A DNA stretch of 64,000 nucleotides from Amoebophrya sp. A120 (GCA_905178155.1 CAJINV010000003.1:2189065-2253064), one strand, 5' to 3'; counted from the first letter of the stretch, positions 7,338-58,700 are shown. Numbers and translations are program-made. Notes: generated by a model from the sequence alone, not told the origin.

Positions 7338-7554
7338 GTTTGTCATGCTTGTCTGCCATGACTTTTAAATCTGTCCTGCACGTTACCCAACAGCTCCACT
7401 TTTCTGTGATGCAGAAACGCAGTTTGATGTCATGCAGAATAGGCAACAGTTAGAAGCTCAGAAACTTGTCATGCTGAGCCAGCATTTGTGGCCTCATCAT
7501 GAGACGCCACCCAGCATCACAAGTTTCCAGACCCAGACATTTTTGCAGTTGATA
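7338..7554. mobile_element. Truncated TIR element, family A (left TIR missing)
   Basis: Ends ttccagacccagacatttttgcagttgata; interior is the reverse complement of a 57596-57847-like interior. Confidence 0.85.
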
Positions 7555-7711
7555 CAACAGTAAAGGAAACCAAGCGAGGACGAGAGAAGCGGCGTCGCAT
7601 TTCCAGGGCTGGGGCTCGAAAAATAATGATACAACAACCACGCGGACAAAGGTCGGGGCCAGCAGTGCCTCCAAAGGTGGAGCTGCAGGATGCGATGGAG
7701 TTGCCGGCCAC

Positions 7712-7927
7712 TATGAAAGTGCACAACTCCCCCTCCCCCTCATTTGCGATGCAAAATCCCAAATCCAGCTGCTGCCTTGTAGCACTGTTTGCATGACAAA
7801 TCCTGGAAGCCCAAACAGCACTACACTCCAGTGCAAATTTGTCATGCAGAACCGGCATTCTTGCTGGTGCTTGTATTGTCGTTCATGCCATACAAATGAG
7901 GGGGAGGGGGAGTTGTGCACTGTCATA
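7712..7927. mobile_element. TIR introner, family E
   Basis: TIR tatgaaagtgcacaactccccctccccctcatttg / caaatgagggggagggggagttgtgcactgtcata; TSD gccac. Confidence 0.9.
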
Positions 7928-8519
7928 GCCACGTGGTAAGCTGCCAAAGTAGCGACAGTCAGGGCGAAGGAAGTGGTCATCATGGTAGACGACACGACAG
8001 AAGGAGAGCAAGTACTTTTAAAGGCGGCCGAGGTGTTGTTGCTGGACTAGCATCTTCGAATTATTACATCAACTCGACCGCATACGTCGGAGGCGGCCTC
8101 CAGCACAGCCGCTACCAAAAGATGAACGAGGGGATTATGATGAACTACTGGGGTCAAAATCTTTTTCAGCCGGCACAGTCGTGCAACGCTGGTGGTCCAG
8201 CATCAGGAGTTCTTGGAGCGTACGATGTCTCTACTTGTTCAAACCATCACTATTCAACTACAACATCTGTCAACAGCTACAACAGCAGCGACACCGTAGT
8301 TGTACAAAAGCAAAACGACTACAACAAGCAGGAGTGGTGCCAGCGCCAGCAGCTTTCATCAGAAATACAAGGACTCGGCTCAGCGACTACGGTCGAGGAA
8401 CTTCTAGGCTTGGTCACGAAAGAATCGACGAGGGCCACAGCAGACGAGCGACCGAATTTAACTTCTAACGCTCTTCTTTCAACATCGTCCTCATCGAACT
8501 ACACCCCGCAGGAGTGGGA

Positions 8520-8754
8520 TATGGCGTTCTCAACTGTTACACTCTCAGCTGTTGCATGATTTGTCATGCAAATTCACAATCAGAATCGATGCGATCAAGC
8601 TGCTTAGCATGACAAATTCTCCAAGGCCTAAGCAGGCTGATACTCTGCGCCAAATCTGTCATGCAAGACGCGCAAGGTCCCTCGTTTCACTTTTGCCATT
8701 CTTGCATTACAGATTCATGTAACAGTTGAGAATGTAACGATTGAGAACCCCATA
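8520..8754. mobile_element. TIR introner, family F
   Basis: TIR tatggcgttctcaactgttacactctcagctgttgcatga / tcatgtaacagttgagaatgtaacgattgagaaccccata; TSD tggga. Confidence 0.88.
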
Positions 8755-8810
8755 TGGGAAGCTTGGCTGCAAAGCCACGCGGCCTTCGCGGATTGCAATG
8801 CGATCCTGGG

Positions 8811-8967
8811 TATCCTGTGCAAAAGTATCGTACTCGTAGTAATTGCAGTCATGCATTACAAATCGCCTTCCTACGCTAAAACAGCATGACAAATTCAATT
8901 TGTCAAGCTAAGGACAATTTGTCATGCTAAGGAAATTTGTAATGCAATTTATACTAGTACGATCCTT
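8811..8967. mobile_element. Truncated TIR element, family D (outer right TIR lost)
   Basis: Starts tatcctgtgcaaaagtatcgtactcgta, as at 19524; right TIR stops at tactagtacgatcctt just before the 39-bp repeat. Confidence 0.85.
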
Positions 8968-8972
8968 ATTTT

Positions 8973-9011
8973 GCAATGCGATCCCGATAGGTGGAACAGG
9001 ATAAGACGAAA
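8973..9011. repeat. 39-bp direct repeat, right copy
   Basis: Identical to 7266-7304. Confidence 0.95.
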
Positions 9012-9432
9012 ATTATTCGACAACACTTTCATAAAAAAGCTAAATACATTCCTTACGGTGTCATAGACAATGTGATTAATGTTGGTATTGTATTCAAGAC
9101 AAATGGCGAGATGTGCCACCCTGTTCGGATCCTTTGATAATATTCTATTTGAGTATAGTATTGAGTGAAGGAGGCGTTTCCGTCTTCCGTTTTTATTGCT
9201 CTCATTCAAGGTGGAAGAAAAGTTGAAACGTCCACCTGCAGCTCGCCCTCACAAACCGGATTTTCAAGAGGAGCAGAGAGAGAGATTGCACAGGAGTACT
9301 GCGGGTTGTACTACATGTCTTCATGCGCAAACGGGAACGTCGGCCGCGAGTCGTCGCTCTACGATGCTGTTTTGTGATGTTTCTGCCACCCTATGGCATG
9401 GAAAGAATTATCAGTATCGCTACGACGCATGA

Positions 9433-12400
9433 TTAGCCCGTCGGAAACGGCAGGTTTGGCAATGGCGGTGGCGAGCTCGGTACTGGCGGAGCACCTCCCA
9501 CTCCGTTGGATTGATACACCAGTTCGGGCGAATGGTACGCCGTGGGATGATCGGGGAGTTGTCCCTCGTTTCGTAGCGAAGCCAGCTGCTCTCCGGCCTG
9601 GTGTTGGCCCAAGGAGCTCCGCCGCGAATGCGACACGTAATGCTCCTCCGCGCCGTCATTGTACAGACCCTCCTTTTCGCCCTCCGGGGCGTTATCCAAG
9701 GTAAATCCGGCATCCAGCTTATCCTGTGTAAAAACGTACCCACACCAGAGTCAGGATGGGGATTTTGCAGCACAAACCTAGGAGCTTTTGTGAGTCACGC
9801 ATGACAAGTTGCACTCTGCAGCGTAGTGCAGGTTAGCAAGTGCAGCCGCATCACAGATTCATCAGCTCATCCTGTTCACAGCATCACAAATTCCAAAACA
9901 CGACTGGAAATGGCTCTCATGGGGATGCGCATTACAAGTCTTCCTGTCTTTGCAAATCTGCATTACAACTCTGGTGTGGGTACGTTTTTACTCAGGATAC
10001 AGCTTCCCAACCTTCTTGTTTGGCGTTTTCTTCATCGGCCGGTCCTGGATCTGATACCGGGCCGGTTCAAACGCGAAGCCTTGTGCGGTCAGACGTGCGC
10101 GGACGTAGAGGAGGTCGCTGTAGCGGAAAAATTGAGGATTTTTCAAAAAGAAAATCATTTCAGGAAGGTGCGACAACTCTGCTTCTATATTCTCAAGGTG
10201 ACAGTGAGAAAGCACGGCCCGTGTCTACGAATATCACTTTAAGAAGTAAGTACCTTCGCATGTAAGTGGTTGCGTCGTCGGTGTCTTTTTTGTCCTGTGC
10301 CCAGCTTGGTTTCTGTGAAATCAAATCGTATATGCTTTGCTTGCTTGGGACGGTTTCGTCTTTGCTCTGGTCCTTGCTTCCAGTGCGCAAACTGCTGAAA
10401 CCTGTCGTAACAAGATGGCGACTTGGTGTGGCGAGGCTAAATTTTTATTTTGTGCAAAATCAGGAATCTTTCTTTTGCGCACGGTCGACGAATTTAAATT
10501 TTGTTGCACGGCCAGGTCAACAATTATTATCGTCATCACATGAGCATCGCAACCAAAAAGCAGTCTCTCAAGTACGATCATTCTCCGGCCCGGGCGGCCC
10601 TCCGACGGGGTAGGAGTCGACTCGACCGCTCAGCAACTCCGTGCCCGAACGCCGCCAGTCGTGCACGCTGGAGCGGCCCTTCGGAGCCGGCCCGGGCGCG
10701 GAGGCCCCCATCAGACCCGCTGCGCGAGAGTTACCACTTTCCATCGCGCCCATCCCCTCGCGCAGTCCGGCGGCGCGCGAATTGGTGGGAACCACGGGGC
10801 CGGACGCCCCCAACCCGGACGACAGGTCCTGCGAGCCCGTGCCGCCGCGCGACAACAGCCCGCTGCGCTCGCGAGGCAGATCCCCCGCCAGGTGCGCCTG
10901 GGCGGAGGGGTTGTATTTTGACTTCTGCCCACTGTCCTCGTCTTTGGCTTTGCGAATCAGGTTCTTAACCATGTCTTCCGCGCGACGAATCTGGACCCGG
11001 GTTCCCTTCATGATCACCGCGCGCGGAATGCCGGCCGGGACATCCTGGTCAATGTTGATGTTGCAGCCGGTGGCAGTTTTGATCTTTTTGATCGTGTCCC
11101 CGGCCTTGCCAATCACCAACCCAACGTACTTCGGCTCCACCATGAATATCTGCTGGTGCTCCGTGCCGTCGTCGCTCTCATCCGCGTCCTCCTCGGAAAA
11201 CGTGCGGTGCCCGCTGGCTGCGCGCCAGTTTTCCTGCTCGTCGACGGAGTCCCGGCGTGAGCTGTCGCGCCGTGGCGGGTACGTGGGCGCGGTGCTCACC
11301 TGCAGATTCACCTCCTGGGCGGTTCCGGGGCCCTGGTGACCCTGGTCCGCGTGTGCGGTATTGGTCGCAGTTGCGTGCAGTTGCTCCTGCGCAGTAGTCA
11401 TCTGCTCGCTGCCTGTTGGTATGTCATTTTTTCGACAATCTAAATCCCTTGCTCTCGTTGCAGGAGGCGGAAAACAATCATTCACGAAGTGGTCAACGAC
11501 TGTGCGAAGAGGTGGTAAACTAAGTAAACGGGAATCTGAATCACAACCATCTACGAGTTATTTTGCTTTTGAAGGAGGAAAAGTCATCTGATCTGATACT
11601 TTTTGAGCCTCCCGCCCCTGGCTGCTGGTACTGAGCGAGAATTGCTGCTGAGAACCTGTTTGCCTCTTCCGCGGAACTGTCTTCGGACTGCTCGTGCTGC
11701 TGGGAGGCCGGATTTGTGCCAGATCCATAGCTACCCGCACTGTACATGTTCTGATGTTGTCCGGATGTTGGGTTACCTGCAAAGCAGTTGAGGTCACAAT
11801 TTATTATCGGCCGCACAGAAAAAGTTAAGGTAACTGGCCCCGGTAGGTGGTCGTGATCTTGCGATTTTTTCCTGTGCTTGATGAACGTGAATCGTGAGAA
11901 AGAAAAACCTCGAACGCTGAAGGAAGAAAACGACAAATACCATTCGTCGCAGAAGGCGGAAAAAGCCGCGCCCGCTCCCGTGCGGGTATCACAGGCTCGC
12001 AATCAAATGCGTTCCCGCCTTCGTGTGCCCCGGTCGGGAACAAGTGCTGCAGTTCGTAGAAATCTTGAAACTGTTCACATCGGATGAGCAAGTCCGGTTT
12101 CAGATATCGACCCAAAAACCAATTCCGCATTCTCTGATGCGAGTACGGTCCCTGGCGACTCCCGTCGTTGCCGCAGTAGTACCAGGGTTGCGTCAACAGG
12201 TGCAGAGGTGGTTGCACATGCGGAGGCTGATGGTTCTCGTAGCCATGATACCCAGCACCCGGTGCTGGGTATTGCATGGGTCCTCGTGCCGGACTGTGAT
12301 AGGCGTGCTGCGGCACAGCTCCGTTGTACCCCTGTCCCTGGTAGTGCTGCTGCCCGGGGTGCGCGGGCTGGTGCCCCGGCGAGTATGGGTTTCTTGCCGG

Positions 12401-15503: not shown

Positions 15504-16793
15504 CTTGGGCGAGCTCAACAAATCCAAAACAAAACGATTGAATTTCAATTTCCAAAAATTTAGAAGCGTCAGTAATAAACTCGATACGCGCGTCAAAAAT
15601 ACTTTGTCGGCGAAACAGGTAGACGATCTGAAAGAATTCAAGTTTTTATACAAAACTTCTACATCTACGGGAATTGTTACTACAGTGAAAGTATGACGAC
15701 GGGGAGGGGGAATGGGAGGGGATCATTCGTGTGCCTGGCAAGGAATGAAGGACGATGCATGGCAAAACGCTGTCGCCTCATCCACACTCGTCTTACACTG
15801 TACTAGTACAGCTTCGCAATCCTACGGTTGGTGTACACTCTCTGCAAAATGAATATCGTCCTCCATGACGACTAAGTTGAAACTCTTAAGTAAGAGCTTG
15901 TTCCGGCGAAGTTGAACTATCTAGCCAACGGGCCAAGGCGCAGGTGAATTTACTAGAGTAAAACGAATTGGGCTTGCTCGGAAGAGGGTCAAAAAATCAC
16001 TATCAAAAGATTGGGTCAAAAATGACAGTGCAGCTGCATAATGCATACTCACCCTTGATGATTCACAAGGTGTGACTGCTCGTGACTGACGAGTGTTTCG
16101 GAAATGAGAAACATTGCTTTCCTGCGAAACGCGAAAGCAGAAATTGAAAAGCTCACAACTAAAGTTGACTAAGCGCGCCATACTGACCCTCTTCTTGGTA
16201 CCAAAACAAAATAAGTAACCAGATTTACATCATCTATTTCCAGGCAAGTACGCGTCAAGGAAACCGCTTCTACCATCGGGCTATCCACAGCTGATCTTCA
16301 ATCATGGTTTTGATCATGATCAAGATCGCGAAAGAAAAAAATTAACCTTCAAGAAAGTTCTTGAAGCGAGTCAAAAGTAACTCTCAGCTTTTAACCACAA
16401 AGAGTCAGACTTTTCGCAAAACACTTGCGAAAGTTCGCCGTCATCTTTCACGAGGAAAAAGTTCTTTCATGTGAAAGAAAACTAGCCATGTGCGCGGCGT
16501 CCCGGCTTATCCAGACCAGGTTATGTGCAGAGAGACGCGGCAAAAAGTGTCTTCGCTGCTTGTTTTTGCTCGACGCTGATGATGCTATTTCGATCGTGCC
16601 ACGCGGGGCGGATCTCGATGTGCTGATTTAGTTTTTACTCGCAAGGTGCTCTTGAAGATAGATACTAGCCACTTTGAAGAAAAACGAGATAGGGATAAAT
16701 TTGCTGCTAGATGTGCTTTCAAATAAAACTACCGCACAAAAAGCTGGAGAGGATCTGCAGCGGGAAGTTCGAACTTCCCCCCGTCCACTGTCG

Positions 16794-19700
16794 CTACGCA
16801 CGAAGCTGTGCACGCGCCTTGTCCAGGATCTCCTTCTGAATTTTCGGATACGCGGGATTGACGGTCAGTACCTGCTGGCAGATCAGAATACACTCCACGG
16901 TCCGCTTCGCCTTTAGGTAGTTGAAGGCCAAACGAAATCCTACGTTTGCGCTATGACCACTCAAGTCCCACGCTTTTTCGTAGTGCGTGGCTGCGTCCTT
17001 GTGCCCTTGCTCCTTTTCGCAAATCAACCCGAGGCACTCCCACGCCTTGCCACTGCTGCGGTTGTGCATGGATGCAAGCTGACACAGGGTCCCAGCCAGG
17101 TCGTACTGTGATAGTGTTCATTAGAAGTCTCCGTGTTTTGTACGAAATTTGCCAGTCTTTCCACGAAACCAAAACGTGCGCAGGTGTCGAACAAAAAAAG
17201 CAACAGGATCAAGCCCGAAAAACAGGTCCTCAAACAACTGTATGTAAGTACTTTTCCCTGCGATATGTACAAATCCGCGAGCAGAAGCCAGGCCTTCTCG
17301 AAGTCCTCGGCCCACTCGGGATTGTAGGATTTCTTCGCGATTTCCGCGATGCGCTTCAGCTGGTTGCGGGCTTTGGTCAGCTGCTTGCTGATAATCAGGC
17401 CCTGCGCCATCGCGAGAACCCCGGGGACGAAGTTTTTGTCCTCGTTGTAGAACTCCATGAGCATCTGCAGTCCGCGGTCCACCTCCGTTTTTTTCTTCGT
17501 GAAAATCGCGTTCTGGGCCTGGTACACGCGCAGCCGCGCCATCAGTGCCGGATTCCGCTGCACGGAGGACGCCTCCTGATTCAGGAGTTCGTGGATGAGC
17601 AGCTCCACTTCCCGGGCGTGCTGTTCGCTGTGTTGCGTCAGGTCCTGCAGGCTGTCCAGGGACAGCTTGTTGGGGTCCGGGTAGAGGTAGATGTCGATCA
17701 TGGCCAGCGTCGCTTCCCGCCGAAATTCGGCGTCGCGCGTGCGCGCAAAGTTCAGGTCCACCAGGGCATCCGAGGCCCGGTTCATGCAGCGGTAGTACCT
17801 GCCGCGGCAGTACCGGAAACCGGGTTCCTGCTCCGGGTCTTATCAAAAGGAAAAATCCACCCTCCCCATATCAAAACGGAAATCTGTGATGCAGATTTGT
17901 TGTCACAAATCAGCTGTGTCATGCTACACGGGAAAAGATGCGGACTGTAGTGCTGGGTGGCGTGGGGGAGCCTTGCATCTTCAGCATGATAGGAGGCAGC
18001 TGAGAGTGGGAAACAGCATGACAAATTGCCTGTAAACGAGACCACGACTGCGGCTCTTGGCCTTCTAGCATGACAAGTCGATTTGTGTCCTCAAATTCTG
18101 CATCACAGATTTCCATTTCGATATTGGGAGGGGGGATTTTTCCGTTTGATAGGTCTTTGTACATCTTCAGGTGGTGCTTGGCGTTGTTCAAAAACCCTTC
18201 GTAGTCCTTCAACTTACCGCTGCGCTTCAGAAGGTAAACCAACCGACTCAAGGCGCGCCAGTCACCTTATTGATTGCGACGGTAGAATTCAGCGCCTTTA
18301 GTTTTGTTTACTTTTGGTATAAAATAACTGAGGAATTCATGATAGGAAAAAAAGAAAAAGTGTTGTAGTCGCTCTGGTGATGCTGCGGTAGCGGTTTTAA
18401 CCGCCGGAACGATAATAATACATGGTTTTTTCTCCAAGAGCTGTCGGTAGTGGTAGGTGGCGTCCCGGTACTCCTGGACGCCACCTTCGCTTCGCGCGCC
18501 GTTCGCAGCTAGCAGCATGAGAAGCTCGGCCATTAGGGTGGAGCCCTCGATGGCCACTTCCGACGAAGATTCCAATCGGAGCAGCACCAGCAACTGCCGT
18601 TCGCAGGCTTCGTAGTTGCCCTCCGCCATCTTCAACTTCGCCAAATTGAGCATGCTGTTGTAGATAGCAGTGACGTTTCGGTTCTTGTACAAAGAAAAGA
18701 TAAAAAATCATTGCCGAGTTTGATGTTCAGCCATGAGAGGCAACCTTGGGTTTCAGCCTGCAAAACAGGCCCACATATTTGCTTGAAGCGAAAAAAAGTA
18801 CTAAGATGGTAAACATCAAATTCAAAGAAAACTTACGCCTTCTCGTGTGCCTCATTGTGGCGCAGGCATTCGGAATAGAACTCCGTCGCTTCGTCGGGCT
18901 TCCGCTCCCGCGCGTCGTAGTATTCGGCAAGTTGGAAAGCAATGTCCGCGTAAACCTCCCGATTTCTCGCTAGTCGCTGATCGTCGTCCTCGGCTCGCAA
19001 CCGGTCCAACACCTCTTTCTGCAACTGCAGCGCGTGCTGAAACCGCTCGGCCGCCTGTGGTGCCGGGGGTGCCCCGTCCGAACTGCTAGCGTTGCTACCG
19101 CGCTGAAACGCGGTCAGCGAGGATTCCAAGTGCACGGTCGCAAGTTGCCGCAACAACTCGATCTTCTGTTGCAGTTGCCGCACCGTTTGCGCGTTGCCCG
19201 ACCCGTCGCCAACGTGTTGCAGCGCCTCTTCCAGCTCCTGCCCCGCGCGCTGCCAATTTTCCAGTTTCATGTGCAACTTGGCCAAATCTAGGCGCAGGTC
19301 GATGGCCTGCGGGTCCCGCTTGAGCGCATTGGCGTAGTAGTTCATACCCGTTTCGTAGTCGTGCGTCAGCACCAGTGCCGCGCCGATTTTGCGAATCAGC
19401 TCCGTGGCGTCAGCCCGTTTGTCCCCGAGAGACAACGCCTTCTCGAAAGTCGCGATAGCCTCTTGCGGCTCCCCGATGTCCAACAACGCCTCGCCCAGCG
19501 CCAAATAGTTGTCGACGTTGTCTTATCCTGTGCAAAAGTATCGTACTCGTATAAATACATTACAAATTTCCTCAGCATGAGAAATGAAATTTGTAATGCA
19601 GATTTGCCTTGGGAACAAGATTTGTAATGCAAGCCTTGCATTTATACGAGTACGATCCTTTTGCACAGCATATGTCTGGGTCTTGCTCCAGGATTTCGCG

Positions 19701-22700
19701 GTAGCACTGGGCGTACCGCTTCGTGTCGTATCGAAAGGAAAAATCCCCCCTCCCCATATCGCAAACGAAATTTGTGATGCTGTATTTGAGGTCACAAATC
19801 GACTCGTCATGCTAGAAGGCCAAGAGCCGCAGTCGTGGCCTCGTTTGCAGGCAATTTGTCATGCTGTTTCCCAATCTCAGCTGCCTCCTATCATGCTGAA
19901 GATGCAAGGCTTCCCCACGCCACCCAGCACTACAGTCCGCATCTTTTCCCGTGTAGCATGACAAAGCTGATTTGTGACAACAAATCTGCATCACAGATTT
20001 CCGTTTTGATATGGGAAGGGGGGATTTTTCCTTTTGATATGTCGTTCTTGTGGTTCAGGTAGATCTTCGCCTGTTCCTTCTTGATCGTTTTCGCCATGCT
20101 TCCCGAGCTGGTGGCCGCGGCCGTCTCGAGCAGGCTCAAAGCCTTGTCCACGTCGTTTTTCGTTTCCGAGTACATCTCCGCCTGCGCCACGAGGATGCGC
20201 ACTTCCTCCTTCGTGCCCTTGAACTCCTTGCTCGCCTCCTGCAAAAGCTTGCTAGCCTCCGCTACCCGGTTCACCTTGCCGTACAGCTGCACGAGTAGGA
20301 GGAAGATCCTAACCCGGTCCTCCACGGTGATCTGCGTGTTCTGCTCCTGCCCGCGCGCCAGGGTTCGCACCCCGGGGATGCGGAGCGCCTCCTCGAGTAC
20401 CTGGATCGCGTTGTCACCGCGTTCTGCGTGGATCATCTGCGCCTTGACCAGGTGGTATAGAGGGTGACTCCTTATGCCGAAATCCCGCGACACGCCCTGT
20501 TCCAGGATGCGGAGCGCCACGTGTACGTCCCCGGCGTCGTAGTGCGCCCGTGCGAGCAGCAGGTACCCCTCCGCGTGGGCCGGGTCGAGGGCCAAGCAAT
20601 TTTCCAGCAGTCGCACGCCGTCTTCGTAGGAACCGCTGAGCAGCTTCGCGCGGGCCAAATTGGTTTGCACATTCAAATTCCCAGGCAAGAACTTCGACAG
20701 AGTCTCCAACACCTGGATGGCGCGGGTCAACTGCGAGGACTTTTTCGGCGCGGAGGCAGAAGATGCACCTGTGATTAAGATTATATGCGGTTGCTAGTTG
20801 GCTGATATAATTTACAAGTAACTCATTGACTTGCAAAAAATACGCGTTCGAGCAAGCATTTTGCTTTTCGTAATATTCTCACAGCTAACAAGACCTGCGG
20901 ACCGCGGCCTTATTCTGGTGACCAATTATGGCATCTTCACCATCAGTAGTGACAACTTACCATCTTGTTCTGGTGCGTGGTCGTGGTACGTCGCTAAGTA
21001 TTCGTTGGCGATTTGGAGCATGTTATCCTGAGTAAAAACGTCCCCACCCCATTGTCAGGTTGTGAACTCTGCAGCACAAATCTAGGAGTTTTGGAAGCCA
21101 TGCATGACAAGTTCGTCTTTGTAGTGTAGTGCAGGTTAGGAAGGACAGTCGCATGACAAACTCATCTCCTTATCCTGTTTACAGGATTACAAATGCCAAA
21201 ACACGATTGGAAATGCCTCTGATACTGATGCAGATGCGCATTACAAATGTTCCTGTCATTGCAAATCTGCATGACAACTCTGGGGTGGGGACGTTCTTGC
21301 TCACGATACATGTAGTCGGCATCGAGCTTCAAGTAGAACTCGTACCCGATCGCGACACGAAAGTCGCTAATATGCACTGTCAAAGTATCAAATGTAAAAA
21401 TGTCTGGGTCTGGAAACTTGTGATGCTAAAATGTGCATGATGAAAACCCTTCCGAATGCAGTCCGGCACGACAACTTCCCAAAACGCTTTCTCATAGGCA
21501 ATCCGCATGAGAAAGTGCGTTTTTGCATGACAAAAGAGGCTGCGACTTTTGTTGGCTACGCAATACAGATTTTCTAGGTATGGAAAATTAGCATTACAAG
21601 TTCCAACCTTCCAGACCCAGACATTTTTACAATCCATACAAAGCCTCGTTTAGCAACTGCAGCGCGGTTGTTTTCTTCTTCCTTCGTGCCACCAGCGCTT
21701 GCAAGTACGACGACACGCTACTTCGCGCGGTGGTCCCGGGCATTAGCGAGACCTGCGTCTCCTTCAGAAATTCCAGTTGTTCGCTGGCGTCGTCCACGTG
21801 ACCGTCGAGGATGCGGCAGTGAATCTGCCCCAAGAGCGCGCGATGGTCCGCCTCGTTTCGCTGACACGCCTGATTGAACGTGTTTCCGGCGTTTCGCACG
21901 TCCTCGAGCAGAAGGTACTGGAAACCCAGCTCGGTGAGGTACACGCTGGTTTCCTTTTTTTGCGTTTGTACGCTTGTCTCCACGAAATTCTGCAGCGCTT
22001 GCTGCGTGATCCGCAAAATTTTGCGATTCCTTCCCCCCAACCGCGAAAACAGCTGGACGACCTCCAGCAACAATCTTCCGGAGTACGGTTCTCGTTGTTG
22101 GATGAAAGACAACAACTCCTCCACCCGTCGCGCAGCCTCGTCAATCAGAGATCGCCCCTGGCTGCCGAGTTGCGCGGCCTTGTTCCCGCGTGGCCCGTGC
22201 TCGGAGCCGCCTAGAATTAATTCAAGATCAAGACAGTAGCACTTTTGCATAACAACTTTCCGTCAGCGTAGAATCCACTCTGTCAGCATGATGTTGAAAA
22301 ACTTATCATGTGTAAAGAACGAAGCGAGCAGAATGTTGAGAGGTAGAAAATATTAATCCGCACCACCTTACTTGGCATGCTTCCCCGTGCGAGAAGGTAC
22401 AGCAGTTGTATTTTGAGGGCGTCGATACTGCCACCCGAAGATGCGTCCTCCAACCGGGTACAAGTTTCGAGTGCCTGCTCCCAATCACCGCAGGACACGT
22501 ACACTCGCGCACGTTCCATCACCGCAGGCGTGAACCACGGGAAGTACACGATTGCTTGGTTCAGAAATTCCGTCGCAGCAGCCCAGTTCTTGGAGCCCTC
22601 CATCAGCTTGGCCTTCAGCATCAGGCCGTCCAATTGCGAAAGCTGCACGGACTGCGTCGTGCTGGCGATTACGTGTTTCTCCAGCAGCTGCAGACACTCT

Positions 22701-23416
22701 TGGTACACTGCCAGAGAGTTCATATATTTTTCAAGTATAGAAGCCATTGCCATGCTCCTGAAAAGAACGAAAGGCACGCACTTCTAACGCTGTACCTCAC
22801 TGTAGTCGCTAGTATGAGGAAAAAGACTCCGATCAAGTGCAGTTTTTTGCGGGCAGGCTACCGCCGAGGCTCCTGCTTTCACAATCTGCAATCAAAACCC
22901 ACTCGTACCGTCCTTTGCCACGGTTTGTGCGGTTTTCCTGGCGTTTGCGAGCCCCTCTTCGTACCGGCAATACGCCACAAAGCTCGCGGTGCTGGCGTTG
23001 TTCATCGAGGACACGCTGTCGGCAAGTTCGCGCGCCCGGGTGAGGGCGCCGACGAAGAGGTAGAACATGCCACAAATGGTCTTCCCCTCGTCGTCCTCCG
23101 GTTCGTTCGCGGCCCGGGCTTCGAACTTTCGCACGCACTCCAGGTCGGGATACTGCGCGTTCTCGTGGAAGTAGGCGAGCGCCCGGTTGGCGGCGAATTG
23201 GAAGACCCGGGGCCCGGTATCCGCGGCCGTCTGCATCTCGCGGATCGCCTCCCGCTCCCGGTTAACGACCCCCTCCATGCCCTCGCACCACAGCCCCACG
23301 GCCTTCCAGAAGGACAGCTCGCGGCCCTGCTCCAGGGCCACCTCCTGCACGCGCCGGTACCACCCATTGCGCAGGTAGTAGAAGATCAGCTTCTCCGCCT
23401 GCCCCGCGTCGGCCAT
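16794..23416 (-). CDS. TTC21B: Intraflagellar transport protein IFT139/TTC21B (TPR protein), multi-exon, with 5 TIR introners plus canonical introns
   Basis: N-terminal LIFYYLRNGWY...FWKAVGL; GYEFYLKLDADYM|LQIANEYL; EPGFRYCRG; KARNQLKRIA...EDFEKAWLLLADLYI; C-terminal KAWECLGLICEKEQGHKDAA.HYEKAW...VGFRLAFNYLKAKR...YPKIQKEILDKAR. Confidence 0.93.
17841..18151. mobile_element. TIR introner, family C
   Basis: TIR tatcaaaaggaaaaatccaccctccccatatc / gatattgggaggggggatttttccgtttgata; TSD ggtct; removal gives KMYKD|PEQEPGF. Confidence 0.93.
19524..19672. mobile_element. TIR introner, family D (149 bp)
   Basis: TIR tatcctgtgcaaaagtatcgtactcgtataaat / atttatacgagtacgatccttttgcacagcata; TSD tgtct; removal gives EQDPD|NVDNYLAL. 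Confidence 0.93.
19729..20039. mobile_element. TIR introner, family C, inverted relative to 17841-18151
   Basis: TIR tatcgaaaggaaaaatcccccctccccatatc; TSD tgtcg; interior is the reverse complement of the 17841 copy. Confidence 0.93.
21024..21308. mobile_element. TIR introner, family B
   Basis: TIR tatcctgagtaaaaacgtccccacccca / tggggtggggacgttcttgctcacgata; TSD catgt; removal gives DADYM|LQIANEY. Confidence 0.92.
21386..21638. mobile_element. TIR introner, family A
   Basis: TIR tatcaaatgtaaaaatgtctgggtctggaa / ttccagacccagacatttttacaatccata; TSD caaag; removal gives LNEAL|TVHISDF. Confidence 0.92.
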
Positions 23417-24123: not shown

Positions 24124-25540
24124 TCACCCTACGCTGAAGAAGCTGTTCGTGAGCGTCTCCATAGAGCTTGACGAGGGCGGTGGTGGCACCTCCTTCAGGG
24201 CTTCCAAGGCACGGTTTTCCGGGACGGCCGGTGCGTCGCCGATGTAGAAAAATTCAGTGTTTGGCGTTGAGAAAACTTCCGGTTGTTCCGGCGTTGCTGC
24301 GGGTCCTCGTCCCTGTCGACCCCTCTCCAACTCTTCAATCTCGCGGTTCAATTGCTCCTCCTTCTGCAACTCCTTTTGCTGCTCGCGGGTGGGTATGCTC
24401 TGCAAAAGTATCGTAGTCGGACTGATTGCAGTTATGCATTACAAATCTAGTGGCTGTCGGTAAATCCGCATTACAAATTTACACTTGTAATGCTGAGCCA
24501 ATGTGTATTACAATTTATACCGGTGCGATACTTTTGCAGTTCGTAGTGGGCTTGTATGTGAAGCCGCCGACGAGGAAAGTGGGTTTGTTCCGACTGGTAC
24601 CAGAAGACGCCCCGGTCTTCAAGTCCACGTCACCAGTGCTGATATCGATTTCCACAGGTCCTCCGGCGTCCGTGGTCATGTCATCGGGATGGCCACTGGA
24701 GTTGTGTGAATGTGACCGCGATGAACCTCCTGCGCTGGTTTCCGATGGCTCGGGTACTACTTGGTGCGCGGGGTAGTAAGAACTCCCCGGACCACCGCTG
24801 CCCGCGGACGGGTCCGGTCCCCGCACGACTGCGTCGCGGTACGACCGGGCTGACTGTCGAGAGTGTGAGGCTGGATAATTATTCCCAGCCGGAGTGGTGG
24901 ACGAAGACCCGCTACCACCGGTGCCCGATTTCCAACGACGCCTAGTTGTACCACTTGCGCCGGCAAAGCCGCTTCCCCCGTCTGGTGTGCTCTGTGGCGC
25001 GGTTGAGCCGCTCTGCGTCGAGGAGAGCCGGGTCATGCTACTTGTCGGCGACAGCCGATGGACGCTCTTCCTCTGGACTCCCGGAAGCGACAGAGCTGGC
25101 TGGCTTGCCGCACCACCACCTGCGGGAGAGCTGGCCGACGAAGCGGGCGAACGCAACGACGGTTTCCACGTTTCCCCGGCGGAAGACGCGCCAGACGAAT
25201 GCGCTGGGCTTGCATGCCTCGTCCCGCCCGTCTCCGATGTCGACCCTGCTCCTGTTCCGCCCGTGACAAGTCCAGCGGACACGACGCCCGGGCTGTCAGA
25301 AGTCGTAATTGCTTTCGGACGGCCCCCCGCTGCTGACCGCAGCGTGGGTCTCCAAGATGACTCTCCACGTCCGGCGGGCCGGAGAGCGAGAGCTTCGACC
25401 GATGACGTGGTTGTTCCTTCCATTATACACAGGAAGCAGAGTGCAGCCACCGCAGCAGGCCGCGTCGGCGCTCTCGGGTAGGCAGACTTTGACATATTTA
25501 GTGCTCCACGCTGGGGTACAAGCACGAGACTCCCGATCAT
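24124..25540 (-). CDS. Ser/Gly/Thr-rich hypothetical protein, possible signal peptide; 3' end uncertain
   Basis: ORFs 24515-25540 and 24124-24405 join in frame (YKPT|REQQKE) after removing 24394-24545; hydrophobic stretch AAVAALCFLCIM near the N-terminus. Confidence 0.6.
24394..24545. mobile_element. TIR introner, family D (diverged)
   Basis: TIR tatgctctgcaaaagtatcg / cgatacttttgcagttcgta; TSD gtggg. Confidence 0.85.
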
Positions 25541-38922: not shown

Positions 38923-41900
38923 TTATGGCTTTTTGTTCTTCGCGAACAGGGCAGTTAAGCCGATGGGTCCCTCGAACAGTCCCTTGCGCAGCTTGTCGAA
39001 GTCCAGCTCGCCCTGTGCGTTGTAGTCTAGCGTGTGGAAGTATCCAAGAAAAAAACTGTGTTAGTGTAACTTTCTTTGGCTGACAGCATCACAAATTTGC
39101 TCTACATGACAGAGAAAACCTGTCATGCGTGGCTCGTAAGGGAAAATACACATGAAAAAAGGACTTCATGGCTGTGTGGCATGACAATTGTGACTGTTTT
39201 GCATTTTCTGCATCACAGATTTACACTTACACAGTTTTTTTCTTGCATAGGAAGATGCGGTTTCGGCGGGTCCGGGTGCCGATGGTCGTGGGCCCGGGTG
39301 GGTAGTGGATGACGTGCGCCAAGTATCGCATGAAAAAACTGTTTCACTGTGAACCTGTGATGCAGAGAACAAAACACCAAACTGTTTGTCTTGCTACACC
39401 TGCAAGACATTGGATTTTTAAGCGTGCTTTCCCTTGGGAAACGCGCATGGCAAATTTTCTGGGTCATGTGTAGCAAACTTGTGATGCGGTTCTTGCAAAA
39501 TCATCACAGTGAAACAGTTTTTTCGTGGGATACCAAGGCCTGGGTGAACTCGGTGGCGGACAGCGATCCGTTGCCGTTGTCGTCGATCATCTCGAAGATC
39601 TTGCGCTGCGTGTCGGTCTCCGCCAGGTTATCCACCTGGTACATCTCGCACAGGTGCTCCCGCAGCTGCGCAAACTCTTCCGTCATGGGGACGCGGCGCT
39701 CCGTATCCAAAGGAAAAATCCCCCCTCCCCATATCAAAGCGGAAATTTGTGATGCTGATTTGTGACCACAAATGAGCTTTGTATTGCACAGAGGCGCTGG
39801 GTCTAGTGGCGTATGGGTCTAGTAGGGGCGTATGGGTCTAGTAGGGGCGTATGGGTCTAGTAGTTCAGCATGGCAAACGGCCCCCCTTTAGGCCAGACAG
39901 CACGACAAATCGCTTCCATAATGGGGCGGAAGCTTCTGCCGTTGTCTTCTTGCAAGACAGATGTGATTTGTTACCTCAAATCCGCAACACAAAATTTTTG
40001 GGAACATGCCTTTTCAATATGGGGAGGGGGGATTTTTCCTCTCAATACTCCGGCGGTGCGGCGTCGCGCTCCATCTGCGCCTCGATCTCCTTCTCGCCGT
40101 TGAAGAGACCAGTATGGAACTGTCAGGTTTGAAATCGTCAAAGTTGAAATAATCTGTAATGCATAAAATGCATGACCCGAGGTACGTGTGTTGCAGAGCA
40201 GGCAAGTGAGGCCGATTGTAAGCCTGTTTGGGGTTACAGCTCGAGCTGCTAAAGTAGCACGAGAAAATCACTCTTCTTTGCCTAAACAGCATGACAAACT
40301 GGATTTAGGGACCACCGAAATTTGTCATGCGCCACTTGGAAACTGGGTTCCAACTGGCATCCATTTTATGCATGGCAAATTATTTCAACTTTGTCGATTT
40401 CAACTCTGACACATCCATAACCGGGCTTCCCGAAGTAGTCCCGGTGCCCGGGGTTCATGTCGGAGGGCGAGATCTTCATGCGGGTGCACCACACTTTGGG
40501 GTGTTTCGCCCACAGCTCGTCCTGCGACTTCACGAACATCCAGTCGTACCACCGTTTGAAGGCTTTCTGCATGTCCGTGTTCTTGTAGATCTTGGAGGTG
40601 TGGCGCTGCGCCTCGTTGTTGGTCCTCTTCCGCGACGCGTTGTCGCGCTTGCGGATCCACTTGTTGTAGGCCTTCTGCGAGCTGTACCGCTTGATGCCAT
40701 CCTTTCCAACCACGTACACGTCCTCGTCGATGAAGGTGTTGGCGTTGACCGCGTCCCGCACCGCGTTGATCCGGTCCGCTCTCCTGAGTAAAAACGTACC
40801 AACACCAGAGTCAGGATGAGGATTTTGCAACACAAGCCTAGGAGTTTTGTGAGTCACGCATGACAAGTTGCACTATGCAGTGTAGTGCAGGTTAGCAAGT
40901 GCAGCCGCATCACAGATTCATCTGCTCATCCTGTTCACAGCGTCACAAATTCCACAACACGACTGGAAATGGCTCTCATGGGGATGCGCATTACAAGTCT
41001 TCTTGTCTTTGCAAATCTGCATTACAACTCTGGTGTGGGTACGTTTTTACTCAGGATATCCTCCTCGTTGTGCTCGCGGTGTTTTTTCGCTACCTCCTTG
41101 GGGTCGATCCCCAGTACGGAGCCGAACTCCTCGAAGGACAAATCTCCGGACCCGTCTTCGTCCAACAGGTGCAACAGGTTGGCGCGGCGCTCGTACGCCA
41201 CCTCGTCGTCGGCGTCGGCGCTGGGGTAGCACATCTTGGCCAGCCCCACCTGGAACTCCTCCATGGAGACGGAGTTGGAGCGGTCGGTATCCAACAGCTG
41301 GTAAAACTTGTACCACCACGTCGTGTCCGCCATGCCGTCGGAACCACGCAACATCTTGCCGTACCTGTAGCGATTGTTCCGATTTGTGCGCAAGTTTCGT
41401 GGGAATTAGTGCATGATGATGATGTTACTTTCGATTTCCTGTTCACAAAATAAATGAAAATTCCCTGCTAACATGCCTACTCACACAATGAAAAATTCCT
41501 CGTCAAATTGCAACGCTCAAGATGAAAACTAGCCTGTTCAGTACTTGTGTGCCAGCCACACGCGGAAGTAGAGCAGTTCGTCCTCGACCGGAGCAAGGCA
41601 AAAACGCTTCATAGCGTCGACTTCCTTCCCGTCGTAGTAGGTAACCCAGTAGATGGGCTGTTTTCCGCTGTTGGGCGGCATCATGGTGATCGGCATGCGG
41701 CAAGTTCCCTGGTCTGGCGGGTCCAACCACACCGCGGCTCCAGCGCAGTAGACCTGTGATAGGACGACGAAATTTTTGATAAAATAGACCTGCCTTTTTC
41801 GTACATCTAAATTGAGTGAGAATAGCAGGGAAAAAAAGACGCGGTTATACTCTTTGTCTCGCAGTCGCGACCCATGCAAACAGAAGGTTGACATTACTAC

Positions 41901-52700: not shown

Positions 52701-55700
52701 GCGCGTATTCGTTTTCCTGTTTGGCCTTCACTTCTTCCAGCTGGGTCCGCAGCAGCGAGACGGCTTTGTCGTGCTCCAGTTGCAGGGCATCGCGCTCGTG
52801 CTCAACTTCTCGTCGCAAAATGTCCTCCGTGTCGGCCTGCAGCTCCGCGCGCAACGCGAGCCGCACGCACGCGGTTTCCTCTTCCAGGCACCGCTTCCAC
52901 TCGGATTCAACCTTCTCTTTTTCCTCCAGTGCCTGCTGCTCGAAACAGAGCTTTTCGTTCGCGTGCTTGGCGATCAGCTCGGCCTTTTCCTGCTCCGAAC
53001 GCGCTTGCGCAGCAGCGATGTCTTCATTCAGTTTCGCAACCTTTTCATCGAGGTCTCTTTTGAGTTCCGCAACTGCTTCTGCGTGGCTTTCCTCTTTTTC
53101 GCGGAGCACTGTGGCATGGTCCAGTTTCAATGCCGATATTTCCTCTGCATCTCCTGCCCGGGTGGCGGTCAACGCGCTGCGCAGCTCTTCCACGGTGACG
53201 CGATGCGTTTCTTCCATTCGGTTTACTTCCCCAACGTGCTCCTTTCTCACTCTTTCCAGGTCCGCGGCGTGCTGTGCTTCCAGCGTCGTTTTGTCCAGGC
53301 CCGCAAGATCGGTCATTTCGTTGCGCAGGGTTGCCAGCTCATTTTCCCAGTACGCGTCGCGCTCCTTGCCTTCGCGCGCGCACTCCATCTTCAGGTCCGT
53401 CACGATGCGGTTCCGCTCTTCGGTCAGTTCCTTCTCGCGTTCATACAAACTCGCAACATTTTCTTCCGCCGCCTTCTTCGCTTCGGCTTCCAGCGCGGCG
53501 ATGCGCTTTGCGAGGTCTGCCTTGTCCTCCTCGGACGCGGACAGGGCTCTGGCAAGCTGCTTCTCCAGGTCCTCACAGCGCCACGAGTAGGAGACTTGCA
53601 GTTCGCGCAACAGCGCTGGCACGTCACTCGTCGCGTCTACTGCGTCCAGTTTTACTTCTTCGCTATTGTTGAAGCTGCTGCTGCGCCCTGGCATAATTTC
53701 CCGGCGGAAGGCTTTCACTGCGTCGCGGACGACGGTCGCGAGTTCTGCTGTTTCTGCCCGTTGCTTCTCTTCGAGTTTTGAAACGTTTGCGTCGTGCTCT
53801 TCCAAGGCGACGGACATGTCGTGCGCGCGGCCCTCGCGCTCCACTGCAAGCTCCTCGCGGACGTGTTGCACTTCCTCCCGAAGCTGCGAAAGTTCAACCT
53901 CCTGCTGCTGCTCCCGTGCGAGCAAGGCTTCTTGTTCCAGGGTGCTCTTTTCTTCTTGAACGGACGACAAAGCCTGAATTTTGTCGAGCTGCACGGTCTG
54001 CAACTCTTGCAGGGTGGCCACCATGGCCTCGGAGTCCTGCAGCATTTGGTCCACGTTGGCAAGCCGCTGTAACTCGGCGGCCACGTCGTCGAGGGAGCTG
54101 CACTCCAGTCCGTGTGCCTGGCAGTAGTCGAGGAGAGTCTTCTGCTTTTGCGTGTGCGATTGCAGATCGTTTTCCATCTCCTCGTGCACGAGCGCCTGTT
54201 CCGCGAGTTCGTCTTGCAGCGCACGCAATTTCGCGTCCTGTTCTGTTTGGAACGTAGTCAGCTGCTCCTCGCGCTCCGCCAGTTTCTGCTGCAGCTTCAG
54301 CAGTTCACCTTGCCGCTCCTCGTTGAAGCCTCGCACGGTGTCGAGCTCGTCTTGCAGTTGTCTCGACTGGGTTTCGGCCGTGCTGGACTGGTTCGCGAGC
54401 TGTCCACGGACCTGATCCAACTCGCGTTGCAGTGCGTCTTTCTCCCGAGTTACCGCGTCCTTTTCTTCGCGCACCACCTGCAACTGCGTCTCGGTCAGAG
54501 ACTTTTCACCCAGTGCCGTCTGCAAACGACTCTCGGTCGCGGATTGCTCTTCCTGCAGCGGCATCAGAAAGCGCTCGCGAAGGTCGGCCTCGCGCTTCTC
54601 ATAGTCGGTGCGCAGCTGTGCCAGCGCCGTCGCCTTTTCGCTTTCCAAGACGCCCCGCGATTCCGCGAGTTCGACGGCGTGCGCCTCTCCGGCTTTGCGG
54701 AGCCGCGCTTCACACTCATCTGCCTTAACGGCGAGCTGCTCCAGTCTCTGCTTTTCGAACTGCTTCTCCAGTACCGCCTGGCTGGCGGCCAACTCCCGCT
54801 CGAGGTCCCCGGCGAGATCTTGCCGCAGTTGCTCCTGCCGCTTTTCCCACTCCTTGTCGCGCTTCTCCAGGGCCCACTGCAGAGCTTCGTCGCTGGTCTT
54901 CTTCAGTTCCGTGCGAATCTCCACCTCAAAACGGTCGCGGTCGCGGTCCGCCTCGTGTTGCAGTCGTGTTCGCTCCGCCTTCACCCGCTCAGGAAGTTCC
55001 ACGTCCGAGAACCGCTTCTGCGCCACCTCCACGGCCTCCCGGGCGCGACGCTCCGCAGCGTCCACTTCGGTCTGCCAGTGTCGAGCCTGCTCCACCCGTT
55101 CTGCCTGCAGGGCCGCAGAGAGCTGCTCTCGATGCTGTCGTGTTTGCGTAGAAAAAATCACGAAGGAATTGTTCGCTCTCGAAATTATACGACACAGTCA
55201 AACAACACCAAAACCGGCGTGCGCAAAGGGGATACCAAAATTTTGACTTGAAATTATACCAACAATACTTTACTAGATACAACACCCCAGTACCTCCGCC
55301 TCCCGCGTCGCCAGTGTTCGATCGTACTGCAGCTGCAGATCTTCGCGGAGTTGCTTTTCGTTCTGGAGTAACAACTCACTGTGACTGTTTTGCAACTCTT
55401 TTTCCCGCGCCAAGAGTTTTTCCTGCGCCTCGTGCACGTGCTTGCTGTACTCGGCCTGCAAGTTTTCCTGGTGCTGTAAGAGGCTTTCGCGCTCGCGCTG
55501 GAAGCGCTTTTCGTACTCCGCGTGTCTGGTTTCGTAGCTCTGCTCCAACTCGGCCAGCTGCCGTTGGATGTTTTTTTCGTACACCTCCATGGCCTGGTGC
55601 TTCTCCAACACTTTGCGTTCCGCAAGCGCGCAGCGCTGGTCCGCCTCTATCCTATGTAAAAACGTCCCCACCCCATAGTCAAGATGGGGAATCGGCTAGA

Positions 55701-58700
55701 CAAATCCACAAGCTTTGGCTGTCTTGCATGACAAATTTGGAGTCGTAGTGTAGTGCTGTTTGAGCTAGCTTGGCAGCATCACAAATCTAGTATATCATGC
55801 AGATTGGAGCAAGACAAATTCAAATTGCAAAACACAACTATAAAATAAGTAAAAATGCTTCTCATGGGGCTCCGCATGAGAAATATTTTCAGCATGCAGA
55901 TTTGCAATACAACTATGGGGTGGGGACGTTTTCAAATACGATAGCCTCCGACCGGTACTTGTCGGTGATGGCCACCTTTTCGCCCTCGTGCAGGCTGTGC
56001 GTATGAATGTGTCAGGATTGAAATATTGAAATAGTTTGTCATGCATATAACGCAACGCAGAAAATGCCTGTCTTGCAGAGTAGGCAAGGGAGGCAGATTG
56101 TCAGCCTGTTTCGAGGTAGAAACAGAGCTGCTAAAGTAGCATGACAAAAGGCGTCTTCCTTAATACCCAAACAGCATCACAAACTGCATTTCGGCTCTAC
56201 TCAAATTTGTCATGCGCCGCTTCGAAATTGGGCTTGCAACTGGTATCGATTTTATGCATTACAACTGAGGTATTTCAACTTTGTCGATTTCAACTCTGAC
56301 ACATCCATAGTGCGCGGCCTCCAGCTCGTTTTGGAGCTGCTCGCGCATCTCCCTCGCCTGCTCCAGCTCCCGCGTGGCGGACCGCGCCTGCATGTCCTTC
56401 TCGTGCAGCTCTTCCTGCAGCTCCGCGCGGCTTTTTCGCTCCTCCTTCCACTTCCGGACGTACTCCTCCCGCTCGGTCTGCAATTCTCTGATCTCGGCGC
56501 GGAGCGCCACCGCCTCGGCCTGCAAGGTTTGCTCCTGCGATTTCAAGCGCCCCGCGGACTCCGACAGGGAGACGCGCAGCGTTTCGTTTTCGGAACGGAG
56601 TTTCTGCAGGTTCGTGCTGTCCTCCAGCTGGTTATATCGGCGGTTACGGCCGCCCGCCTTGTCCACGTCCACTCGCAGGAACTGCGCAGGGGTATTGTCC
56701 ATGTCGGCGTAGCCGGAAAACTCCAGCGAAGTGTTTACCGCGCTGTCCACGGTCTTCGTGTTCCGCAGCACCGCCACGCCCTTCTTTTGCACGTCCTGCA
56801 ACTTCTGCTGCGCGACCCGCTCGCGACGCGTCAGTGTGTCAATCTTCGCATCGGCCTCCTTCTTGAACTCGCTTAGTTGCGTCACACGGTCGACTATGGC
56901 GGCAAGGTCCAGTTTGGCATCAAGCTCAGCGAATTTGAACCCCGTGCTGGTTGACGTATTCAAGCTGGCCTGCGATGATATTCTTTTTGAGTGCACCAAC
57001 GGAGATAAATCAATGCTCTAGAGCCAAAGACAAAATGGCACATCAGACGCGCGATAGGACATCAACGCACGCTTGAAAAGAACTTGTTTTGGGAATAAAA
57101 CAAACAGACCGATCAAGCAAGCCAACAAGATCGACCAAGTCATTCAGTACGTCGTGCGCTCCCGCGGCGGCGTCTGCAAGTGAGGAGATGCGGAGGAGAA
57201 TATCTTCTCGCTCCTGGAGTTGCGTTTCCAATATCCTGAGTAAAAACGTCTCCATACCAGAGTCAACGTGGAAAATCTGCTAGACAAATCGGCCAACTTT
57301 GGTTGTCTCGCATGACAAGTTTGTCCTCGTAGTGCAATCCTGTTTAGCTAGTTCAGCAGCATCACAGATCTAGCCTATCATGCTATTTCTAGCATCACAA
57401 ATCCCAAAACGCGATTAGAAAAAGCTTCTCATGGGGCTTCGCATGAGAAACTTTTTTGGCATGCAAATTCGCATGACAACTCTGGGGTGGGGATGTTTTT
57501 ACTCGGAATATCCAAATCCACGCACTTGCCTTCCGCGTCCTCGTAGCCGTGGCGTACTTCGCGCTCGCGCTCGGACAAGTCGCGGACTTGGGTTCTATGC
57601 ACTGCAAAAATGTCTGGGTCTGGAAACTTGTGATGCTGGTTGAGAAAGACGAGGACGCCTCAATTGACTGGCAAGCATGACAAGTTTTAGGGGTGCTACA
57701 GTCTTGGTGTTTCTGCATGACAAAGTGAGCTTCTGCATGACAGAAAAATGGAGCTTTTGGGTAATGTGCATGACAGACTTGAGAATCATCTCAGACAAGC
57801 ATGACAAACTTCCATTCTTCCAGACTCAGACACTTTTGCAGTTCATAGGTTCGCAGTTTGAGCAATTCGGAATCCGTCTCGGCCGCCTGCTGCTCGAACT
57901 CTTCGAGATACCGCGCAAACTCCGCTTCCACTTGCGCCAAGGCTTGCTGACAGCAGGGCTTCGGACCCGTCGTTGTACTATCCATCCCGCCGGGGGTCGA
58001 CGAGGACTTGCTGCCTGACCGGGCCCCCGCGGACGGCGCTTTAGAAGTGACGCCCGGACTGTTCGCAATGCTCCGCGGGCCCCCGGACGAGGAAACCTTG
58101 AGCAGAAGCTTGCTGAGCTCGTCCTCCTTGCGGTCCAACTCCATCTGCAGCCGCATCGCCAGACTGCGGTAGTCCGTGATTTGGTGAATCTTGGGTCGGT
58201 TCTGCACCCGCATGGCGCGGCTGCCGAATTCCAACGTCGACTGCGTCTCCTCCACGTCGCGGTCGAGCGGCGACACCGTGACAATCAGAGCGGTTTTCGC
58301 CGTGCCGCCCAGCGAGTCTTGCAGCAGTCGCGTCAGTTTGCTGTCGCGAAACGGAATGTGTGTGCAGGAAACATCGGTGAGCGCCGCGATGCAGTTGCCC
58401 AAGGCGGAGAGACTCAGGTTGATCCGCCGAGCCTCCCCGAGCCGGAGTCCCCAGGCGTTGGTCTTCTTGACGCGCTCGGAGCCGGCCAAGTCCACAATGT
58501 GGAACCGTGAGAGGACGCAGCTCCCCCCGGTCTGCAGCTCGCGCTTCAGAATCACGACGGCGTGCGACCGGGAACTGTTCTTGTTCACCATGGTCGCAGC
58601 CTCGGCCCGCCGGTGCTCGGCGTCGCGGATCAGGCGCATGCAGGCCTCCGCGCTGTGCACGCGCAGCTGCTCGCAGTTTTCCAGGATGATTCCGTCGCGG

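Follow-up and report, generated by a model that had tools for sequence, protein, structure and literature searches.

The window analyzed here, a stretch of 64,000 nucleotides (nt) from Amoebophrya sp. A120 (CAJINV010000003.1:2189065-2253064), contains 24 short elements that are bounded by terminal inverted repeats (TIRs) and flanked by 5-bp target site duplications (TSDs). These elements are probably noncanonical introners of A120, kept in the DNA and lost from messenger RNA (mRNA) together with one copy of the TSD, likely by a system that reads their paired ends and not GT-AG splice sites. At this locus removal acts on RNA, and excision from DNA is unlikely, because a spliced transcript lacks five of the elements while a DNA-like run keeps them. 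The element class is real, was rightly described in an earlier note on this DNA, and is already known from publications, so that it is no new finding. How the elements are removed has been an open question since 2021; this would be one of only a handful of instances in which nuclear introns are removed in bulk without splice dinucleotides. Our analysis narrows removal to a process that acts at the RNA level, is independent of orientation, and uses no target sequence.

Elements in the window

We scanned the window for 16-nt TIRs with at most three mismatches that were accompanied by an exact 5-bp flanking repeat. This strict scan returned 21 sites, compared to none in each of three shuffles, and 19 of the 21 were elements with the architecture TSD-TAT...ATA-TSD. 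The other two sites were rejected as elements of this type: 39748 is a motif pair inside element 39704 (elements are named by their first position), and 54333 is unrelated. Three further elements, 36080, 40113, and 40780, each with one TSD mismatch, came from a relaxed scan, and two truncated copies (7338-7554 and 8811-8967) came from BLAST, bringing the total to 22 complete and 2 truncated elements in eight TIR families, the same count that the earlier note had reached. Element length is 150 to 350 bp. As that note had also described, TAT...ATA ends are the rule (20 of the 22 complete copies), the exceptions being 24394, which ends GTA, and 40780, which starts TCT. The TSD is perfect in 19 complete window copies and has one mismatch in three. 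A search of Rfam gave no matches in the window.

Removal acts on RNA

To locate the removal step, we compared two data sets over positions 17000 to 36900, namely, X3, which is RNA by guess, and X1, a DNA-like run; the junction evidence from both comes from among the joints listed. Record 9 of X3, a contig of the IFT139 gene, lacks three GT-AG introns and is therefore spliced. Its pieces are separated by gaps of 132, 51, and 347 letters, and a gene model from which five elements (with one TSD each) and the three GT-AG introns are removed keeps exactly these lengths. Five elements of four families are thus gone from one transcript contig, each with one TSD, and among them 17841 and 19729, which belong to one family and lie in opposite orientations, are both missing. 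A second contig, X3 record 11, breaks off precisely at the edge of 24394, and the depth in the bin that follows is consistent with continuation past the element.

X1 gave a different picture. Its depth is flat over the compared region, with 0 differences in unique DNA, and its contigs pass from unique DNA 25 to 60 nt into the element ends at a depth of 21 to 27. Elements are present at full depth at all seven junction regions listed in these contigs, from which rare forms are lost. That note had left RNA and DNA removal side by side; the transcript contig speaks for the former, and the X1 contigs speak against removal resembling that of the internal eliminated sequences (IES) of ciliates. The raw reads of X9 and X11 gave no coverage of any element junction at this locus. 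Separately, raw X11 reads, most of them 99% alike, have a poly(A) end at 28212 for the minus-strand gene there (region 28212-28427), and X9 contains reads that hold an element end with a different flank.

Reading frames of the host genes

The precise loss of element plus one TSD, claimed in the earlier note, was borne out by the transcript contig and also by tests of open reading frames (ORFs) and homologues. An IFT139 model that starts from 22753 and has its five elements removed with one TSD each is open for 1262 amino acids (aa) and is 45.6% identical to homologue P0001 over 1237 columns. When an element was kept, or when two or no TSDs were kept, an earlier stop appeared in 15 of 15 tests. 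Aligned with seven homologues, four of the five junctions were gapless, and the fifth had one extra residue. The best matches of the protein are from dinoflagellates.

Evidence from the other genes is of a different kind. After removal, the frame of the EF-hand gene reopens, with EF-hand-like loops in the C-terminal part. The kinesin motor domain is uninterrupted, and all four elements of that gene lie in the tail. Besides IFT139, the other host frames open as well when element and one TSD are removed. In the EF-hand, 9720, and kinesin tail tests, however, some variants with the wrong TSD gave frames of equal or greater length, and for this reason ORF length alone is no proof there. The claim that removal restores conserved proteins therefore stands against homologues for IFT139 only, comes down to a reopened frame with EF-hand-like loops for the EF-hand protein, and for kinesin concerns the tail and not the motor domain.

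A larger sample from another assembly

The end of one family occurs in about 520 stretches of a metagenome collection, and among the matches listed, 80 loci were all on contigs of one other assembly. Our larger sample consists of 146 loci (545 kb) of that assembly. None of the 25 longest matches between the window and these loci fell outside elements. The sample contained 410 TAT...ATA TIR pairs, of which 212 had an exact 5-bp repeat, 39 a 5-bp repeat with one mismatch, 6 a 4-bp repeat, and none a 6-bp repeat; the remainder include cross-pairs between neighbors. Base composition at the target sites is flat. The copies are old, the nearest relative being a median of 87% identical and the TSD having decayed in 38 of 296.

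We assigned strands using a codon model trained on the window genes, which gave a call for 16 window copies out of 20, in every case the expected one; the other four received no call. In the sample, 156 of 338 elements were oriented and the 182 that could not be were left out; for stem statistics, 83 of 326 stems were dropped as badly registered. Keeping the element would introduce a stop in 149 of the 156 oriented copies. Both orientations were present in 9 of the 12 families with at least four members, a count in which the largest cluster is chained via shared TIRs. Insertion, then, proceeds without a target sequence and in either orientation.

The TSD starts at the third codon base in 77 oriented copies, at the second in 43, and at the first in 36 (P = 1e-4; random control, 87/81/87). 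Target preference did not emerge as its cause: none of 17 positions showed a base preference, and P < 0.01 was reached by 3 of 320 tests on dinucleotides, as chance predicts. TSD mismatches were synonymous in 18 of 29 cases, compared to at most 42% predicted (P = 0.02; by the third-position rate, P = 0.11), and at position 1 all 7 were synonymous. That both TSD copies are coding is a lead only, as conversion from empty alleles could yield the same pattern. Placement of the cut from homologues at the nonsynonymous TSD mismatches was dropped when the flanking peptides looked poorly conserved. One locus with several elements (L067, positions 2140-3324 plus flanks) holds a conserved gene, that of the largest subunit of RNA polymerase, with Pfam Rpb1 domains.

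Junctions and splice dinucleotides

We slid each of the 22 complete window junctions within its TSD on the sense strand. One copy could be read as GT-AG (31391, TSD GGTGA), one as GC-AG (55648), three as AT-AC (19524, 19729, and 21024), and 17 as none of these. The statement that sliding gives no GT..AG pair is accordingly right for 21 of 22 copies and fails for 31391. In the larger sample, GT-AG was possible in 11 of 156 oriented copies, about the number expected by chance, and impossible in 145; an in-frame GT-AG pair nearby was absent for 83 of the 156. As a class, the elements do not have the canonical ends of U2 or U12 introns (GT/GC-AG or AT-AC).

Arms, motif array, and mobilizer

The arm consensus is TAT-(C/G)-N4-G-N-AAA, with A at positions 11 to 13 in 90 to 95% of ends, and the arms pair to about position 30. 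Further inside, 284 of 289 elements carry the motif TGTnATGC, which is shared by 24 of the 26 whole-length families, points inward, and starts 33 to 45 nt from most ends. A relaxed form of the motif occurs in the window 77 times in the 5.6 kb of complete elements, 8 times in the two truncated copies, 7 times at 46162-46483, and once elsewhere. Spacings between motifs of the same orientation lie near multiples of 10.5 bp (34 family-level values, 10 of which are 31 to 33 and may share descent; jitter P = 0.0002). We predict that the array binds one DNA mobilizer.

With their TIRs, TSDs of fixed length, short noncoding bodies, and many copies, the elements resemble miniature inverted-repeat transposable elements (MITEs), and the best reading is that all of them belong to one mobilizer. 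The long elements with the same TIRs and a transposase that the earlier note had suggested seeking did not turn up: 609 kb gave one long TIR pair, which was false (L065, 2562-8758, consisting of inner parts of two copies). One element of 1.1 kb (L016, 505-1608) has TAT...ATA ends and a perfect TSD; where its right half would be, the interior is GC-rich and repetitive. A dual-specificity phosphatase gene in the window (43513-46771) contains three copies of a 69-nt segment, along with an insert of about 1.9 kb that is rich in GC and one end of which (46160-46490) has seven TGTnATGC copies and lacks a TAT-type TIR. This insert is possibly a remnant of a larger element using the same predicted binding site; it had no match among the 146 loci.

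Relation to known systems

Farhat et al. 2021 (PMC7789003) report 29,850 repeated introns in 1954 families in A120. In the passages of that paper on these introners, the inverted repeat starts TAT-N7-AAA, direct repeats are 3 to 5 nt (5 bp in the legend to its Fig. S19), RNA sequencing (RNA-seq) supports removal, the mechanism of which is left open, U1 small nuclear RNA (snRNA) is not detected, and there is no transposase. In Gozashti et al. 2025 (PMC12130899), most of 19 of the 58 A120 rows of one table are TIR DNA elements of the same sizes, and an integrase-like TIR family is described. The window elements share with the introners of these two sources the TAT-N7-AAA inverted repeat, the direct repeat at the junction (5 bp here), and the many families, which are absent from spliced RNA and have no fixed splice dinucleotides; the mean of about 240 nt and size classes near 149, 208, 252, 260, 278, 305, 320, and 340 (PMC12130899) are also alike. 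Nothing in those passages sets the window elements apart as a system. The A120 literature text that we covered does not mention the TGTnATGC array or how its sites are spaced, a TSD that is uniformly 5 bp and shows no base preference, the removal of members of one family from both orientations, or the codon-phase bias. The figure logos S19 to S25, bioRxiv supplements, and closed journals may hold the motif. The main text of Farhat et al., as far as covered, contains neither "subterminal" nor "lariat" and does not analyze the elements for phase or orientation. No paper resolving removal was found in the literature searched.

Comparable introns occur elsewhere. The nonconventional introns of euglenids, in the portion of Nomura et al. 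2025 (PMC12501133) that we used, also lack GT-AG and have terminal pairing, fixed spacers from motif to cut, a proposed MITE origin, and reported circles. They differ in having a short CAG/CTG pair and in needing a purine at the first exon base, whereas the window elements have a 30-bp TIR, TAT...ATA ends, and no exonic base preference; the euglenid signature N3CDG...CHGN5-6|R is absent here, with no purine bias beyond codon composition. Fritillaria borealis, in the sections of PMC13326754 considered, likewise combines large numbers of non-GT-AG introns derived from transposons with a U2 spliceosome that is conserved, but there the dinucleotides AG-AC and AG-AT recur and U1 is conserved, whereas here one end is random and A120 U1 snRNA is not detected. 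The TIR introners of Polarella, Symbiodinium, and Aureococcus (bioRxiv 10.1101/2020.10.14.339549, in part) are similar in having TIRs and TSDs, some families active both ways, and a phase bias. Unlike the present elements, 145 of 156 of which cannot be GT-AG, they take their splice bases (GT/GC/GA and AG) from the element or its TSD; their phase bias arises because splice bases are recruited, whereas no base-level cause was found for the bias here.

Proposed mechanism and alternatives

Taken together, these results suggest how the elements might spread and be removed. One DNA mobilizer with a 5-bp stagger would spread all families, reading TAT at positions 1 to 3, G9 and AAA at 11 to 13, and the shared TGTnATGC sites. 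Once inserted and transcribed, an element would be lost with 5 nt, as it was for five copies, from the same molecule that loses GT-AG introns. We propose that the TIR stem of about 30 bp closes in the pre-mRNA in either orientation and that each cut falls a set distance from the stem, the two distances a and b adding up to 5, much like the spacer-measured nonconventional splicing of Euglena. The end architecture is indeed common to the families, as the earlier note had it; that one machinery reads it, and that the stem juxtaposes the two TSDs, are suggestions of that note that we would retain. The catalyst could be a putative nonspliceosomal cut-and-ligate or circle-forming reaction, which we put forward tentatively and with slightly more doubt than belief. 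It seems rather unlikely that a second, nonspliceosomal mRNA splicing pathway operates at tens of thousands of sites, with a ruler (a + b = 5) matching the stagger of the mobilizer, a TGTnATGC array that binds a factor serving DNA and possibly RNA, and a cut whose register may vary, with the result that the mRNA can receive either copy of the TSD.

Several observations weigh against removal by recognition of paired ends in RNA. Only one transcript contig spans several junctions, it is complementary DNA (cDNA) from a run that is RNA by guess, and the inner boundaries in record 9 are fixed by length only. Single TAT/ATA changes number 13 in 243 copies versus 52 TSD mismatches, a count in which one end of the anchor copies is fixed by the search pattern. 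Arm positions 4 to 7 are unpaired in 23 to 53% of 296 copies, compared to 2 to 3% at positions 11 to 13, and the ends therefore look as if they were recognized singly, as by a DNA-binding protein. Mismatches in the TIRs show no selection for G-U over A-C on the sense strand (63 versus 80; P = 0.18), and sense and antisense strands fold equally well (118 copies; P = 0.86). The codon-phase bias of 77/43/36 is not accounted for, and neither 80 of 146 long ORFs of the loci nor 42 window ORFs held a transposase or integrase domain.

A remodeled U2-type spliceosome that removes the elements as lariats is a serious alternative, though on the whole we doubt it. A cut after the fourth TSD base would make the intron start N-UAU(C/G), thereby matching known 5' splice sites, such as GUAUGU and RUAUCC, at +2 to +5, and under registers 1 or 4 the TSD phases correspond to 49% phase 0, which resembles ordinary introns. 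One transcript loses both elements and GT-AG introns. In the account given in PMC7789003, almost the full set of spliceosomal proteins is retained in A120, among them U1-70K, U1A, and U1C, along with U2, U4, U5, and U6, and Fritillaria removes its non-GT-AG introns with a U2 spliceosome and a divergent U2AF (PMC13326754, in the sections considered). Set against this, there is no base preference at the would-be +1 or at any of the 17 positions around the site, and one intron end would be wholly random sequence. GCAUnACA, tried as a branch point, showed no 3' preference, the 5' copy being kept in 30 cases and the 3'-proximal copy in 23 (totals, 182 versus 177), and there was no bias between 5' and 3' arm bases at positions 1 to 30. 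These strand-asymmetry tests, which give no support for RNA-stem recognition or for a branch point, have low power, given the built-in symmetry of the elements and the small number of changes that arose after insertion.

Excision from DNA in the transcribing nucleus, as for ciliate IES, would suit the motif array with its 10.5-bp period and the independent recognition of ends, which resemble DNA-protein signals. We nevertheless regard it as highly improbable, since X1 holds the elements at every junction region listed and the DNA-type signals are explained by transposition; the age of the copies and the decay of their TSDs also fit poorly with excision in a lineage that is not known to have a separate germline nucleus. 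Equally improbable is that the cDNA gaps are template switches of reverse transcriptase across a hairpin between short direct repeats, a known recipe for such artifacts, and that the mRNA keeps the elements, the genes being dead or the ribosome bypassing the element between matched codons of the two TSDs. All of the RNA evidence is cDNA, both here and in the passages of PMC7789003 used, and a 5-bp repeat always contains one whole codon. Yet a kept element nearly always leads to a stop, while IFT139 matches its homologue past five elements, all of which are missing from one contig. Ribosomal bypass was rejected, as it predicts no mismatch at positions 1 and 2 of the matched codon, where 8 of 29 TSD mismatches lie. 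For removal by recognition of paired ends, as for any other model, the phase bias is something that must be explained; the imperfect TSDs offer a means of placing the cut from existing RNA-seq, and the shared motif could serve as bait for the mobilizer. A sequence-independent, scarless excision module would serve RNA engineering.

Coordinates and neighboring features

Table 1. Elements and host genes in the window, with TSDs given on the sense strand
Feature	Position	Strand	TSD	Remarks
Truncated element, AAAATGTCTGGGTC family	7338..7554	.		Without left end; BLAST to 32866 and 57596, ~80% over 211-214 nt
Element, CACAACTCCCCC family	7712..7927	+	GCCAC	Within plus-strand open frame
Element, CTCAACTGTTAC family	8520..8754	+	TGGGA	Same plus-strand frame as 7712..7927
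Truncated element, AAAGTATCGTAC family	8811..8967	.		Decayed right end; BLAST
Element, AAAACGT(A/C)CC family	9720..9999	-	AGCTG	
Host gene IFT139/TTC21	16793..23416	-		Interrupted by five elements and by GT-AG introns; X3 record 9 is a transcript contig
Element, AAAATCCCCCCTC family	17841..18151	-	AGACC	94% identical to 19729, opposite orientation; missing from transcript
Element, AAAGTATCGTAC family	19524..19672	-	AGACA	Missing from transcript
Element, AAAATCCCCCCTC family	19729..20039	-	CGACA	Missing from transcript
Element, AAAACGT(A/C)CC family	21024..21308	-	ACATG	Missing from transcript, judged by length
Element, AAAATGTCTGGGTC family	21386..21638	-	CTTTG	Missing from transcript
Element, AAAGTATCGTAC family	24394..24545	-	CCCAC	Sense start TAC; transcript piece (X3 record 11) ends exactly at 24546
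Element, AAAATGTCTGGGTC family	31391..31652	-	GGTGA	Sole window copy readable as GT-AG
Element, AAAATCCCCCCTC family	31700..31963	-	GGGGG	
Element, AAAATGTCTGGGTC family	32866..33118	-	AGTGG	
Element, AAAAACTGT family	36080..36248	-	GCTTA/GCCTA	Imperfect TSD (synonymous)
Host gene, EF-hand protein, 352 aa	38920..41353	-		Five elements; model without canonical intron
Element, AAAAACTGT family	39041..39249	-	CTTCC	
Element, AAAAACTGT family	39324..39532	-	CTTGG	
Element, AAAATCCCCCCTC family	39704..40047	-	CGGAG	
Element, TCAGG.TTGAAAT family	40113..40419	-	CCGGT/CTGGT	Imperfect TSD (synonymous)
Element, AAAACGT(A/C)CC family	40780..41058	-	GAGGA/GCGGA	Sense end AGA; imperfect TSD (Glu or Ala)
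Element, AAAACGT(A/C)CC family	55648..55943	-	GAGGC	GC-AG possible; kinesin tail
Element, TCAGG.TTGAAAT family	56002..56309	-	CGCAC	Kinesin tail
Element, AAAACGT(A/C)CC family	57232..57510	-	TTGGA	Kinesin tail
Element, AAAATGTCTGGGTC family	57596..57847	-	GAACC	Downstream of kinesin motor domain

The window genes are compact and co-oriented, and Pfam identified TT21/IFT139, EF-hand, kinesin, and a gene for dinoflagellate viral nucleoprotein (DVNP) at 802-1338 (PF19060, E = 9e-17). Opposite to the rest of the window runs a plus-strand coding fragment at 7555-8810, which contains two complete elements and has a truncated element on each side; an exact direct repeat of 39 nt (7266-7304 and 8973-9011) flanks it. 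The region from 7266 to 9011 looks like a captured or duplicated gene piece; its 39-nt repeat had no match among the 146 loci of the other assembly. Finally, an X3 contig differs from the window at seven or more positions within 31995-32099, and the depth of X1 is about 42, compared to 25, at 32382-32860, so that 31995-32860 is perhaps represented by a second copy or allele of this part of the gene.

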